The notes under the pieces were generated by a model. It ran no database searches. It was not told the origin of the DNA and saw only the letters and a program-made list of their open reading frames with translations. From Promethearchaeota archaeon (GTDB taxonomy: Archaea > Asgardarchaeota > Lokiarchaeia > Sigyniarchaeales > SOKP01): a stretch of DNA of 64,000 bases. The stretch covers positions 33,670 through 97,669 of the forward strand of contig JAHPZE010000016.1 of assembly GCA_019058365.1 (NCBI GenBank). The letters run 5' to 3'. A program made the position numbers and the translations under genes. Shown piece after piece: positions 9,596 through 14,784 of this stretch (positions are counted from its first letter, which is position 1; every line of letters starts with the position of its first letter).

Positions 9596-12460
9596 TCAAT
9601 TTTTTACCTCTATAAATACCTCAACAACTTTATTATCAATTTTTAATTTCTTTATATCTTCTTTACCTTCTAAATTTTGAATGATAATATCGGCTTGTAT
9701 CATCTTTTTAATTTTTTCTTCATGTTTTTCAAGAGCTTCTGAAATATCTTTATCAATTATTTTTAAATACAAAATAATTCGATTTTTCGTTGAGAGATTC
9801 AATTGTTTTCTATAATTATTTAAATGCCTAATCAAATTTCTAGCAATTCCTTCCAACCTTAACGTTGTTGTAATTTTGGTATCTAATTCTATTAAAATTT
9901 CAGACTCTTCTCCCTTTTCAATATTTACTTTTCTCACATTTATAGCTTCTGCTATAATATCTAAATATTTCTTTTCAAGATTTACTCCTTTTATTGTAAC
10001 CTTATTTAGAACCTGTCTAACTGGAATTTTAGAATTATCTCTTAATTCTAAGGATCTTTTTACTATTTCTCTTGTTAGTTCCATATTTTTTAGAACTTCG
10101 CTTTTAATCAATGTCTCATCAAATTCTGGCCAAAACTCTAAATGGACGGATTCAAAATTTATACTCCCTTGTTCTATCAATTTCTTGTATATTATCTCTG
10201 AAATAAAAGGAGTTAGAGGAGCTAAGAGTTTTGACAAATTATACAGCGTATACGACAGTGTATTCATCGCTGATAGTTTTTCATTTATAATCTCACTTTT
10301 AAATCGATTTCTACTGTGTTTGATGTACCACGTAGACAGATCCTCAATGAAATTGAAAAATAATCTACTTGTTTCTGCTGTGTCATAATCATTCATGAGT
10401 TGTGTAATATCCCGAATAAGTTTATTCAATAAACTGACAATCCATTGATCTAAAATATTATCTGAATGCGTTATATCCATAGTAATGTCATCAATATCAA
10501 TCAATGAATAGAACTTTAGAATATTAATTAACAATAAATTAAATCGTCGGTAAACCTGTTTTACAATTTCTTCTTTAAAATTTAAATCTTGTGCCCTCAT
10601 CAATTGGGATGACAAAAGATATACTCTTAAAGCATCAGCTCCATACTTTTCAATCATTACCTCTGGATTAGGGAAATTTCTTTTGGATTTTGCCATCTTC
10701 GTTCCATCTTCAGCAAGTATATTGCCATTTACAACTACATTTTTAAACGGAATATCATCAAATAATAAGACAGATATTACATGCATATAGTAAAACCACG
10801 CTCTAACCTGTCCAATATACTCAGAAACAAAATCACTTGGATAGTTATGCTTAAACCATTCCGAATTTTCAAATGGATAATGTTTTGCAGCATATGGCAT
10901 TGATCCTGATTCCAGCCAGCAATCAAAAACCTCTGGTACACGGGTCATTACTTTACTGCAACTGGGACATTTAAGATGGATCATATCAACTATATGTCTA
11001 TGAAGATCTAAATCATCGGGGACCTCTTCAATTGCATTTTCCTGCAATTCATTAATGGATCCAATGACTTTAATTTGTTTACATTCTTCACATTCCCAAA
11101 TGGGCATAGCTGTAGCCCAAAATCTATTTCGTGAAATACACCAATCAGGAGCGGTATTCACTATACTTTCATATCTTCTAGAAATCTCTTTAGGATACCA
11201 TTTGATCTTTTCATTAGTTTTTAGAAGCTTCTGTTTTATTTGCTGAATGTCTATAAACCAGGCATCAAGAGCATTATAAATTAATGGAGTATCACATCTA
11301 TAACAGAATGGATAAGAATGTGAGTAGTCTTCTGAACTAAATAATAGATTTCGTTGTTGCAAATCCACTAATACTTGTTTATCTACATCTTTAAACCATA
11401 ATCCAATCCAATTTCTTGGACCTTTGGCTAGATTGCCATGCTCATCAATGTGTTGAATTATAGGTAAATCATATTTCTTAATCATTTCATAATCAAATTC
11501 TCCATAAATTGCTATGTGTATAATTCCTGTTCCCTCATTAGATAATACCTCATCACCACCATCAATAACAAAATGCCCTTTTTTGTTGGTATCAAGAGAA
11601 ATTTGATATAAAGGCTTATATTCTATATTAAGTAGGTCTTTTCCTTTAAATTCATTAACAATTTCATAGTCTTTTTTGATTATATCCAGTTGGGTTTTTA
11701 TCAATATTAAATATTCATCATCCAGCTTTATCTTAACATAATCTTGCTCACTATTTACAGCTAAAGCTACATTTCCAATTAACGTCCAAGGCGTAGTAGT
11801 CCAAGCGAGAAAAAATGTCATTGATTCTTCATTCAATTTGAATTTTACTGTTATTGATTGTTCACTAATGTCTTTATAGCTATTATCCATCGAAATCTCG
11901 GAATTCGAAAGTGGTGTTTCACAACGAGGACAATAAAATAAAATTTTCTTACCTCTATACACTAAACCATCATTATATATTTTTTTAAAAATGTACCATA
12001 TGGTTTCCATATAAGTATTATCCATGGTTTTATAAGAATTATTGAACTCTATCCACTTACCCATTCGTTCAACGGTTTTTTTCCATTCATTTGTATACCA
12101 AAGCACTTTTGATCGACAGAATTCATTGAAATTATCTATACCCATTTCGTATATTTCATTTTTTTGCTTCAAATTAAGGGCTTCTTCACATATACTCTCT
12201 ATTGGCAAACCATGACAATCCCAGCCCCATCTTCTCTCACAATGATACCCTTTCATTGTCCAATATCTTGGAAATACATCCTTAGTTACAAAACTTAAAA
12301 TATGACCATAATGTGGCAATCCCGTTGCAAAAGGAGGTCCATCATAAAATATATATGGATTTTCCTTTGGTGTTTGTTCGACACTTTTTTCAAAAATCTT
12401 ATTATCTTTCCAAAATTGTATAAGTTCCTGTTCTTTTTCAATATATGAAATATTTAACAC
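9596..12460 (-). CDS. ileS: isoleucyl-tRNA synthetase (type 2, archaeal/eukaryote-like)
   Basis: DGPPFATGLPHYGH, GWDCHGLPIE, WTTTPWTL editing motif, WCISRNRFW, DCWLESGSMPY and KMAKS. Confidence 0.96.
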   Translation of the reverse strand: MLNISYIEKEQELIQFWKDNKIFEKSVEQTPKENPYIFYDGPPFATGLPHYGHILSFVTKDVFPRYWTMKGYHCERRWGWDCHGLPIESICEEALNLKQKNEIYEMGIDNFNEFCRSKVLWYTNEWKKTVERMGKWIEFNNSYKTMDNTYMETIWYIFKKIYNDGLVYRGKKILFYCPRCETPLSNSEISMDNSYKDISEQSITVKFKLNEESMTFFLAWTTTPWTLIGNVALAVNSEQDYVKIKLDDEYLILIKTQLDIIKKDYEIVNEFKGKDLLNIEYKPLYQISLDTNKKGHFVIDGGDEVLSNEGTGIIHIAIYGEFDYEMIKKYDLPIIQHIDEHGNLAKGPRNWIGLWFKDVDKQVLVDLQQRNLLFSSEDYSHSYPFCYRCDTPLIYNALDAWFIDIQQIKQKLLKTNEKIKWYPKEISRRYESIVNTAPDWCISRNRFWATAMPIWECEECKQIKVIGSINELQENAIEEVPDDLDLHRHIVDMIHLKCPSCSKVMTRVPEVFDCWLESGSMPYAAKHYPFENSEWFKHNYPSDFVSEYIGQVRAWFYYMHVISVLLFDDIPFKNVVVNGNILAEDGTKMAKSKRNFPNPEVMIEKYGADALRVYLLSSQLMRAQDLNFKEEIVKQVYRRFNLLLINILKFYSLIDIDDITMDITHSDNILDQWIVSLLNKLIRDITQLMNDYDTAETSRLFFNFIEDLSTWYIKHSRNRFKSEIINEKLSAMNTLSYTLYNLSKLLAPLTPFISEIIYKKLIEQGSINFESVHLEFWPEFDETLIKSEVLKNMELTREIVKRSLELRDNSKIPVRQVLNKVTIKGVNLEKKYLDIIAEAINVRKVNIEKGEESEILIELDTKITTTLRLEGIARNLIRHLNNYRKQLNLSTKNRIILYLKIIDKDISEALEKHEEKIKKMIQADIIIQNLEGKEDIKKLKIDNKVVEVFIEVKN

Positions 12461-12730
12461 CTAACTTGAGATTTTTTTATTATCATTAAATATTCTAACT
12501 TAAATACATTCTAAATAAAAATTGTTTAACATTAGGGAGATTATATCGCAATTCTAAGTTATTTTATTCATGAAGTAGGATGTGGAGTAAAGGTTACGAG
12601 AATTCACTTCACAAATAAATGAAGTTAGATAATAATAATCGCGGATATGATCTTTATCATATTTTGTGCAAAACCTAAGAATTTAGTATTTTTATTCATA
12701 ACATCCACATCCACGTTATATTTTAAATAT
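12461..12730 (-). promoter_or_regulatory. putative attenuator-like ileS leader (uORF, alternative stems, U-tract, upstream TATA-like box)
   Basis: Segments A (12625-12620, ACUUCA), B (12611-12606, UGAAGU) and C (12576-12571, ACUUCA). A 9-bp inverted repeat at 12704-12712/12578-12586. U-tract at ~12521-12513 and TTTAAAA at 12727-12721. Confidence 0.6.
12625..12699 (-). CDS. putative Ile-rich leader peptide (uORF) of ileS, MNKNTKFLGFAQNMIKIISAIIII*
   Basis: Translated by hand: ATG at 12699, TAA at 12627-12625. The last ten sense codons are ATA AAG ATC ATA TCC GCG ATT ATT ATT ATC. It is on the same strand as ileS and 164 nt upstream of its start. Confidence 0.75.
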   Translation of the reverse strand: MNKNTKFLGFAQNMIKIISAIIII

Positions 12731-12780
12731 AGTAAAATGATCTAAAAAATATTTCGGTATTTTCTAGATTTATATCATCA

Positions 12781-14784
12781 TTAATCTAAAAATATATAAT
12801 TATGAGCAATTTTCCTTTTGTCCCTTCCAGCAAGGATGTGAATATGTTTGATTGTTCTAAGTGAGTCCTTACTAAAATTATCAATTGGAATATAAACCAG
12901 TTCTCTATTTTTAATTCCAGCTAGTGAGTAGAAATATTTACGAGGTGGTTTATTTGCTACATAGGCTATGTACCTTTCTTTTGAATAAATAATTGCAGCC
13001 TTAAGTAAGCGGTCTGCTTTATTCTTAGTATCTTTGTATTCATAATCCATATGTGGGTCAAAAATGGATCTTAGAAATAGTGCTGGAAAGATTGATAATA
13101 ATCCTCCAACTTCTACATGCGTAATTCCTGGACCAATAACATAATCTCCAGGATTTGTTGAATAGAAAGCCATATCACTCTCCCTCTCATGTTCTGCCCA
13201 CCAAGTCAATTTGTACGGATATTTTTCTATTTCTCCATCATCCTTATCAAATATCACTATAATTGTATCAGTTTTACCTTGAATCTGTTGAATATTCTGC
13301 ACATAAATCTTCTTTTTAAAAGCCCAATTCCTAATAGTTTCCTTAATTGCAATTCCATCCATTAAGCTAGATTTGAATTCTTCTATTTTGATTCTCTGAT
13401 TTTTTAAATTTTTAATTGCTTTTTTTCTTATAAAAGCAAAGTAGTCTTCTTCTAAAATATCTTCAGGAGGCCAAGAAACTGTATAATCTTTACCTTCTTC
13501 CCATTTTTCTCGCCATTCACCTGGATATTTTTCTTGAGATTTTTCCTTTAATGGTAGGTTTTTTTCTTTTCCATACCCATAAGGATGATATCTTCTTAAT
13601 TTTATATACCGACCACTTGGATCATAACCACCTTCTATATTCATCTTCAATGTTTCATAATTATCACTTTCATCATCATAGGGATATTTTGTTGCTTTTT
13701 CCATAACTTTCCAAGCATAATCATCATCAATAATATTCTTTGAGGCAATTAACAATTGATACAAATTTGGTAATAATCTTTGTTCTGATAATGAGAGATT
13801 TCTTGAATATTGAAAAAGAGTTTTTAATTTATGAAGATCTACAAATTCCTTGTATTCCTCTTCATACTCATATTTAGATTTTAATAAGATCTTCCTAATA
13901 TGTTCAATCTTATTATAGGAATGCAGAATTTTATAAACTTCTTCGGGAGTTTCGATATTTTCTAATTTTTCTTTTGAGAACTTCTCTCGAAATTTTAACC
14001 ATTTATATGTATGATAGGGTAATTCTCCTAAAAGAAACCTGGCGTCAGAACCATTTATATTGTAAATTTTCACATATTTATGAGGAATTAAATCCAATTC
14101 CACATCTCGAACTTTTTTTGGATTGTCTAAATAATATTTCACGCTTTCCCAATGAGCCATACCAATAATAAGTAAAATCCTATGATATAATGGTGCCATC
14201 TTTAAAAGATGAGCTGCCATATATTTTTCTCTAAGAATATCTTTTTCAGTATAATCGTACTCTTTATCGAAATTTTCTTGATTTTTAAGAAAATCCTCTA
14301 AATTTGTCTTATCTTTAAGTTTATCTTTTTTATCCTTGAACTCTTCCGTAAAATGTTTTGATATTTGCAGATAAAACTTCTGAAGACCAATTTGATTAAT
14401 CGCGTAATCATCTGGAAACTTGAAACTTGGAGGCAAATACTCAGAGACAGACAGATCGATGAATTCGATTGGAATATTATGTTCGAGACCAATTCTTATA
14501 CCTTCTATTATAGAATCTCCTGGATCTATTGGAATGAAGTTTAACTTTTTAGGATTTAATGTATCAGCATATCCAATTAAAGATAAAAAAGGTAATCTTT
14601 CAATAGCCTCCATTACTTCATCTTGCATATTATTTGGCAATTCTACAGCAATTATATCCGGAAATACTTTAAATAACGCTGTACGTACCAATTTCGCAAA
14701 CTCTATACGCGAATGAAAAGTGGGAATAACGTAAATATTTTTAAATTTAATAAATGGATTCTCATCCATGTGAATCTTTATCAT
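12781..14784 (-). CDS. conserved hypothetical protein with TraB/ChaN-like N-terminal domain, partner of the MoxR ATPase
   Basis: PTFH...PDIIAVELP...REKYMAAHL...ILLIIGMAHW pattern. Overlaps the end of the upstream AAA gene. Confidence 0.55.
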   Translation of the reverse strand: MIKIHMDENPFIKFKNIYVIPTFHSRIEFAKLVRTALFKVFPDIIAVELPNNMQDEVMEAIERLPFLSLIGYADTLNPKKLNFIPIDPGDSIIEGIRIGLEHNIPIEFIDLSVSEYLPPSFKFPDDYAINQIGLQKFYLQISKHFTEEFKDKKDKLKDKTNLEDFLKNQENFDKEYDYTEKDILREKYMAAHLLKMAPLYHRILLIIGMAHWESVKYYLDNPKKVRDVELDLIPHKYVKIYNINGSDARFLLGELPYHTYKWLKFREKFSKEKLENIETPEEVYKILHSYNKIEHIRKILLKSKYEYEEEYKEFVDLHKLKTLFQYSRNLSLSEQRLLPNLYQLLIASKNIIDDDYAWKVMEKATKYPYDDESDNYETLKMNIEGGYDPSGRYIKLRRYHPYGYGKEKNLPLKEKSQEKYPGEWREKWEEGKDYTVSWPPEDILEEDYFAFIRKKAIKNLKNQRIKIEEFKSSLMDGIAIKETIRNWAFKKKIYVQNIQQIQGKTDTIIVIFDKDDGEIEKYPYKLTWWAEHERESDMAFYSTNPGDYVIGPGITHVEVGGLLSIFPALFLRSIFDPHMDYEYKDTKNKADRLLKAAIIYSKERYIAYVANKPPRKYFYSLAGIKNRELVYIPIDNFSKDSLRTIKHIHILAGRDKRKIAHNYIFLD

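Follow-up and report, generated by a model that had tools for sequence, protein, structure and literature searches.

An isoleucine-codon leader ORF and competing RNA helices upstream of an accessory isoleucyl-tRNA synthetase gene in Promethearchaeota

The stretch of Promethearchaeota DNA analyzed here (64,000 nt, referred to as the window) harbors on its minus strand a gene for an isoleucyl-tRNA synthetase (IleRS), which is preceded by a short upstream open reading frame (uORF) ending in a run of isoleucine codons. This arrangement raises the question of whether the leader of an archaeal synthetase gene senses the charging of tRNA-Ile through the ribosome that translates it, and by which RNA structures such a signal would be passed on to the gene downstream. 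A preliminary description of the window had suggested a ribosome-read switch in the leader of this gene, which it called ileS. All the features described below are located on the minus strand and are numbered by their position in the window.

The accessory synthetase gene and its surroundings

The gene (9596-12460) encodes a protein of 954 aa, which scored 823.8 bits with the equivalog model TIGR00392 (cut-off, 621.4 bits). Among the class I motifs, HYGH was found, and KMSKS was replaced by KMAKS. Since the genome contains another IleRS of 1048 aa (C50:6366-9260), which shares ∼31-33% identity with the window protein (tblastn or HMMER), the window gene is, as judged from its sequence, an accessory paralogue and not the housekeeping gene, and it is designated ileS2 hereafter. 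The original assignment to isoleucyl-tRNA synthetases was thus retained, with the amendment that the gene is a DPANN-like second paralogue rather than the housekeeping copy. The closest non-Asgard relatives of IleRS2 were those of DPANN archaea (50-61% identity), followed by those of CPR bacteria (∼45%), and roughly every second species of the genus was found to carry ileS2; the gene was likely gained horizontally. The SSU rRNA of the host scored 1451 bits with the archaeal model vs 1115 bits with the bacterial model.

The ribosome-binding site of ileS2 (12449-12461) consists of GGUG, a spacer of six bases, and AUU (12451-12449), and its GG-G positions are conserved; the 3' end of the host 16S rRNA contains CACCUCCU. 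Translation could alternatively start at the GUG at 12460-12458. Among the 34 species compared, the position of the ileS2 start codon is occupied by ATG in 14, by ATT in 15, and by ATA in 3. In L007 and L057, the sole in-frame GTG near the ileS2 start runs straight into a stop codon, and ileS2 likely begins in both with the AUU located six bases 3' of GGUG.

The sole copy of cysS in the genome (8094-9518) starts 77 nt 3' of ileS2, and the spacer between the two genes contains a T6 run and an A+T-rich box. The ileS2-cysS order recurred at 23 related loci within the genus; no cysS was seen adjoining ileS2 in the loci of the sister genus. Upstream of the leader lies an ORF of 667 aa (12781-14784) with no Pfam match, which is the upstream neighbor in most, though not all, of the related loci. 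No HMGL-like genes (citramalate/isopropylmalate synthase) were found in the host genome, which is rated 100% complete, and the host organism may be unable to make its own isoleucine or leucine.

The leader ORF and the alternative helices

Orthologous leaders were collected from whole genomes of relatives, public genome contigs, and metagenome contigs, yielding 34 and later 52 distinct sequences; all the aligned leaders come from two sister genera, and many helix columns are invariant. The uORF (12625-12699), which was present as originally reported, is made up of 24 codons and a stop codon and ends in Ile-Ile-Ile-Ile-stop, the run itself (12628-12639) reading AUU AUU AUU AUC. Its frame was open in all 34 leaders, and both the other frames were closed in all 34. 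The length was 24 codons in 32/34, with variants of 20, 22, 23, and 25 codons, and every indel was in frame. The three ATT codons were invariant across the family and were separated from the stop codon by at most one codon, which varied. The open frame, the closure of the other frames, the in-frame indels, and the invariant ATT codons together argue that the uORF is translated. An invariant GUG within the S1 segment described below (12706-12708) shares the frame of the uORF, and the position of the uORF ATG is occupied by ATT in one metagenome variant and by GTG in one genome (L182 and L047). The ATG start is hence not fully certain, and initiation may occur from the GUG within S1. The preliminary description had also pointed to a second mini-uORF with a duplicated start context. 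This frame (12571-12554) does exist in the window; its ATG was, however, found in only 9/34 leaders and is an accident of this and a few other species.

The uORF might instead encode a functional hydrophobic micro-protein, or the structure around it might merely stabilize the mRNA, with no sensing of isoleucine in either case. The middle of the peptide is loosely conserved and its tail is hydrophobic, and small proteins are commonly held by archaeal 5' regions (PMC11456600). However, the invariant parts are the run of three AUU codons and its spacing to the S1* segment (see below) and to the stop codon, whereas the N-terminal half varies freely, the entropy is nearly flat over the codon positions (0.79, 0.84, and 0.95), and the element is strictly tied to the gene of an isoleucine-specific synthetase. 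Such an explanation is therefore given hardly any weight.

An unbiased RNAalifold consensus of the leaders consisted of two helices. One of them joins S1, the 5' switch segment (12704-12714; core GGAUGUGGA at 12712-12704; ten invariant columns), to S1* (12641-12650), a partner that had been overlooked in the preliminary description. S1* is located inside the uORF at codons 17-20, its 3' end lying one base before the Ile run, and the helix S1:S1* comprises 12714-12705 with 12650-12641. The other consensus helix is B:C, formed between the extended segments B (12605-12618) and C (12564-12577). A further partner of S1 is S1' (12578-12586; UCCACAUCC), which is contiguous with C and lies within the B:C loop; it contains two invariant CA steps, and no other stretch of the leader is both C-rich and free of G. 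Among the 52 distinct leaders, S1:S1* was 96.5% paired with 3 compensatory pairs, and S1:S1' was 98.9% paired with 2 compensatory pairs and five G-U cells, the double changes in the latter being G-C to A-U, and A-U to U-A at the helix end. B:C could be extended to 14 bp and was 93.4% paired with 7 compensatory pairs; one lineage showed a paired 2-nt deletion on both strands. The calculated duplex energies were −12.6 kcal/mol for S1:S1*, −14.0 kcal/mol for S1:S1', and −12.1 kcal/mol for B:C. The comparison shows that S1 has two mutually exclusive partners of nearly equal strength, S1* and, ∼120 nt downstream, S1'.

The observed covariation score was reached by 0/500 shuffles, a significance that is inflated by the kinship of the sequences, and slid controls paired at 40-51%, a contrast that is likewise overstated because the sequences are related. 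The single sequence by itself provides modest evidence for the long-range helix: helices of 9 perfect base pairs, irrespective of composition, turned up in 27% of the dinucleotide shuffles, and equally G+C-rich ones in 2.75%. Both the B:C stem and the 9-bp long-range helix proposed originally (12712-12704 with 12586-12578) thus proved to be real on comparison, and the positions that had been given for segments A (12625-12619), B (12612-12605), and C (12577-12570) were likewise confirmed.

S1 is preceded by two conserved boxes. Box 1 (12741-12757) is A+T-rich with a purine-rich 5' edge, a candidate BRE/TATA; its spacing to S1 is fixed, and it was kept in all the leaders, even in those with a different upstream gene. 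It would be a candidate promoter for an RNA starting a few bases 5' of S1. The TATA-like Box 2 (12716-12731) lies 28 nt 5' of the uORF ATG, a position matching a weak genome-wide TATA peak of leaderless genes (−31 to −28 from the ATG), and could either serve as a second promoter, from which the uORF would be transcribed without a leader, or belong to the longer RNA as its A+U-rich 5' end. An RNA initiated from Box 2 would start 3' of S1, as in the leaderless transcript without the upstream arm that had been considered in the preliminary description, and would count against the switch proposed below; S1, S1*, and S1' could then be copies of a protein-bound DNA motif or be conserved as part of a promoter. 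The location of Box 2 and the invariant S1 core would fit such an arrangement, but changes in S1 were matched in S1* and S1' such that pairing was preserved, as in the L056 lineage, where a G to A change in S1 is accompanied by C to U changes in both S1* and S1'. Also, wherever S1* is not fully complementary to S1, the difference results in a G-U pair, which fits RNA pairing and not a repeated DNA site, and S1' would be left as an invariant, non-coding, and partnerless 9-mer. We consider it very unlikely that S1 is outside the RNA. As S1 covaries with both its partners, it is probably transcribed, and the functional RNA would be the longer one, perhaps initiated from Box 1.

The switch as first described differed from this arrangement. 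A ribosome terminating at the uORF stop codon was supposed to mask segment A and so to favor B:C, while a ribosome stalled further upstream, or none, would allow A:B or the long-range helix, with a U-tract serving the output. Segment A (12617-12626) begins in the uORF stop codon, and the minimum free energy fold of the leader (z = −2.1) does include the proposed A:B hairpin along with the 9-bp long-range helix. In the register proposed, though, A:B was only 75.5% paired with 1 compensatory pair among the 34 leaders, and its C-G pair was found in 4/34. A register shifted by a few bases, in which the 3' neighbor of B (to 12600) pairs with A, was better maintained (86.5% paired, 3 double changes), but one of its pairs was unpaired in 24/52, and its duplex energy was about −4.7 kcal/mol. 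Substitutions in B track C and not A, so that A:B could be at most a weak decoy, in a register other than the one first drawn. The U-run (12517-12521), a U5 in the window and up to U9 in relatives, is a candidate archaeal termination signal: at least five T were present at a fixed place in 29/34 leaders, but neither the g14 clade nor L013 has the run, and about 50 nt separate it from helix C. The consensus helix S1:S1* is left unexplained by this scheme, which appears improbable as an account of the whole switch. What stands of the preliminary description is a ribosome-read leader with its uORF and its B:C and long-range helices; the main toggle would be S1:S1* vs S1:S1' and not A:B vs B:C.

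A covariance model was built on the 155-nt core of the element. It detected exactly one copy per positive genome, in 30/54 genomes of the genus and 9/42 of the sister genus, and gave 0 matches in the 22 other genera of the same order that were sampled. In a first search of 25 genomes of the genus, the leader was present in 14/14 genomes with ileS2 and in 0/11 without it, and 19/19 metagenome contigs with a close ileS2 carried it. The leader was found to remain with ileS2 where the upstream gene changes, and it was absent from all the DPANN and CPR ileS2 homologues examined. A metagenome scan for distant members returned close relatives only. Searches of the host genome with the covariance model and with the S1/S1' pattern each matched this locus alone, with no second copy or sister leader. 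Other Ile-rich short ORFs of the genome were chance-like, and the single one inspected was without such an RNA. By these comparisons, the element is a real, conserved, and lineage-specific RNA restricted to two sister genera of Promethearchaeota.

A predicted ribosome-controlled switch and its output

The organization of the leader makes it fairly probable, in our judgment, that it is a cis-acting element that reads the charging of tRNA-Ile via the translating ribosome and controls the accessory ileS2. When Ile-tRNA is ample, the ribosome would complete the uORF and depart; S1 would then pair with the nearer S1*, leaving the C-rich S1' single-stranded in the B:C loop. Alternatively, A:B would hold B in this state and the entire S1'-C strand would be free. 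When Ile-tRNA is scarce, the ribosome would stall on the AUU run with its footprint over S1* and A, and the freed S1 and B would zip onto the continuous S1'-C strand to form a pseudoknotted composite helix of ∼23 bp. Segment S1* immediately precedes the AUU run and A follows closely on the stop codon, the two together spanning 38 nt. A ribosome stalled on the run should therefore overlie the greater part of S1* and the beginning of A at the same time. We infer this overlap, and the pseudoknot, by geometric reasoning from the spacing and the usual footprint size. In the least certain step, the free S1'-C strand would lower the expression of ileS2 and its sequestration would raise it. The result would be more IleRS2 when the charging of tRNA-Ile drops, whether by shortage of isoleucine or by inhibition of the housekeeping IleRS.

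Several possible routes from the switch to ileS2 were evaluated. The leader contained no G+C-rich terminator hairpin with a U-run (0 terminator-like sites), in agreement with the preliminary description, which had noted the absence of a bacterial-type terminator. Termination at the U-run is possible, as judged from its conservation, though not universal. The U-run is complementary to an A-run ∼40 nt downstream (12472-12478), and a sister-genus clade was found to be without the U-run, without the A-run, and without roughly 45 nt of the spacer. From C to the start codon of ileS2, RNAalifold revealed no conserved structure. Hungry-codon frameshifting at the AUU run was rejected as the +1 and −1 frames are not maintained open, and S1 was rejected as a strong Shine-Dalgarno sequence as its match to the 16S 3' end, made by eye, amounted to four pairs, one of them G-U. 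No Rfam family reached the gathering score in the 64,000-nt window, and in the leader nothing above noise emerged even with E-values of up to 10 allowed. In particular, no T-box was matched in the window or the leader, and a T-box riboswitch was thus dismissed.

Another candidate output was translational attenuation, in which the free S1', resembling the 16S 3' end, would block the ileS2 Shine-Dalgarno sequence until a stall lets S1 capture it, as in ermC or the mycobacterial poly-Cys ORFs. Such attenuation has a bacterial precedent (bioRxiv 10.1101/834739), S1' is rich in C, both S1 and the Shine-Dalgarno sequence of ileS2 are rich in G, and in about half of the leaders no region paired better with the ribosome-binding-site window than that of S1'. 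However, the ribosome-binding sites of 101 other genes bearing a Shine-Dalgarno sequence were equally good partners of S1' (mean percentile 0.51), the pairing with its own site amounting to only −2 to −3 kcal/mol in several species, and the two regions did not covary. Masking of the site was also rejected on the basis of constrained partition-function folds, computed without pseudoknots, in which the accessibility of the Shine-Dalgarno sequence was flat at 0.57, 0.58, and 0.57. Translational attenuation is accordingly regarded as an unlikely output.

For the ribosome-read switch proposed here, the favored output would be that aCPSF1/FttA ends transcription prematurely, or cleaves the RNA, at the unpaired CA steps of S1' and at the downstream U-run. 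Pab-aCPSF1 cleaves at CA steps when they are single-stranded and not when they are helical (PMC3553952), and in Methanococcus termination efficiency is set by U-tracts together with aCPSF1 (PMC8716108). The host genome encodes an aCPSF1/FttA orthologue. This route is favored on account of the two CA steps in S1', the cleavage specificity, the role of aCPSF1 and U-tracts in termination, and the presence of the orthologue. The leader would then be a factor-dependent archaeal attenuator mediated by the ribosome, with single-stranded S1' as the entry or cleavage site for aCPSF1/FttA and with the stalled ribosome causing S1' to be buried; as a complete scheme, this is put forward tentatively and is itself rather doubtful.

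Comparison with known leader-peptide and synthetase control systems

In bacteria, control by a leader peptide whose translating ribosome senses an amino acid is a textbook mechanism. Among such systems, pheM-pheST of E. coli, a synthetase operon, is the closest to the present leader in logic, and ilvL/ivbL, with their Ile codons, are the closest in the choice of codon. Like the bacterial leader-peptide attenuators (PMC1183508), the leader contains a short ORF rich in codons for the amino acid of the gene it would control; it has mutually exclusive RNA pairings, one of which would, judging from the spacing, be covered by a ribosome that has stalled at these codons; and low charging is expected to raise the expression of the synthetase. 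Unlike them, it belongs to an archaeal host and has no terminator hairpin with a U-run beside the switch. Its toggling strand lies 5' of the start codon and would pair either within the ORF or with a remote segment, and a pseudoknot would form on stalling. It also lacks any sequence or Rfam relationship to the trpL/ilvL/pheM class. As the terminator hairpin is missing, the leader falls outside the definition of that class.

In the limited collection of literature searched, archaeal uORFs identified by ribosome profiling were found, and no archaeal amino-acid-sensing leader peptide or attenuator. An archaeal leader-peptide attenuator would thus fill a gap in the knowledge of archaea. If the proposed switch is true, it would imply that translation trails transcription closely enough in Asgard archaea to steer the folding of RNA, and would offer a mutable test case for archaeal expression platforms that work without bacterial terminators. 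The 155-nt element is compact, making it a candidate isoleucine-responsive switch for a genetically tractable archaeon.

The mycobacterial leaderless short ORFs with poly-Cys runs (bioRxiv 10.1101/834739) and ermC would be similar to the present leader in that stalling on a run of one codon in a tiny 5' ORF remodels the RNA, and in that no terminator is needed. A difference from them is that the ribosome-binding site of ileS2 was not found to engage in any conserved pairing.

The T-box leaders of ileS/ileS2 in Firmicutes would resemble the Asgard leader in controlling an IleRS gene, including a stress-induced second copy, and in sensing the charging of tRNA-Ile. A T-box, however, binds the uncharged tRNA directly without an ORF, whereas the sensor in the Asgard leader would be a translated ORF. 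In Priestia megaterium, IleRS1 is constitutive and IleRS2 is induced by mupirocin stress; both IleRS genes of bacilli have T-box leaders, and induction of IleRS2 in P. megaterium may, according to the authors, use uncharged tRNA-Ile via the T-box along with the stringent response (bioRxiv 10.1101/2022.02.09.479832). By analogy with the stress-induced ileS2 of bacilli, the element would mark the horizontally acquired accessory IleRS as inducible. An inducible IleRS2 would in turn hint at natural inhibitors of IleRS, or at scarcity of isoleucine, in the sediment habitat.

Factor-dependent attenuation with a ribosome on the leader peptide is known from tnaC of E. coli. If the favored output is true, the present leader would be like tnaC in that the ribosome on the leader peptide gates the entry of a termination factor at a C-rich, single-stranded site. 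It would be unlike tnaC in that the proposed factor is the nuclease aCPSF1/FttA and not Rho, and in that the proposed site would be concealed by RNA pairing and not by the ribosome itself. The leader would then represent an archaeal counterpart of Rho-dependent leader-peptide control.
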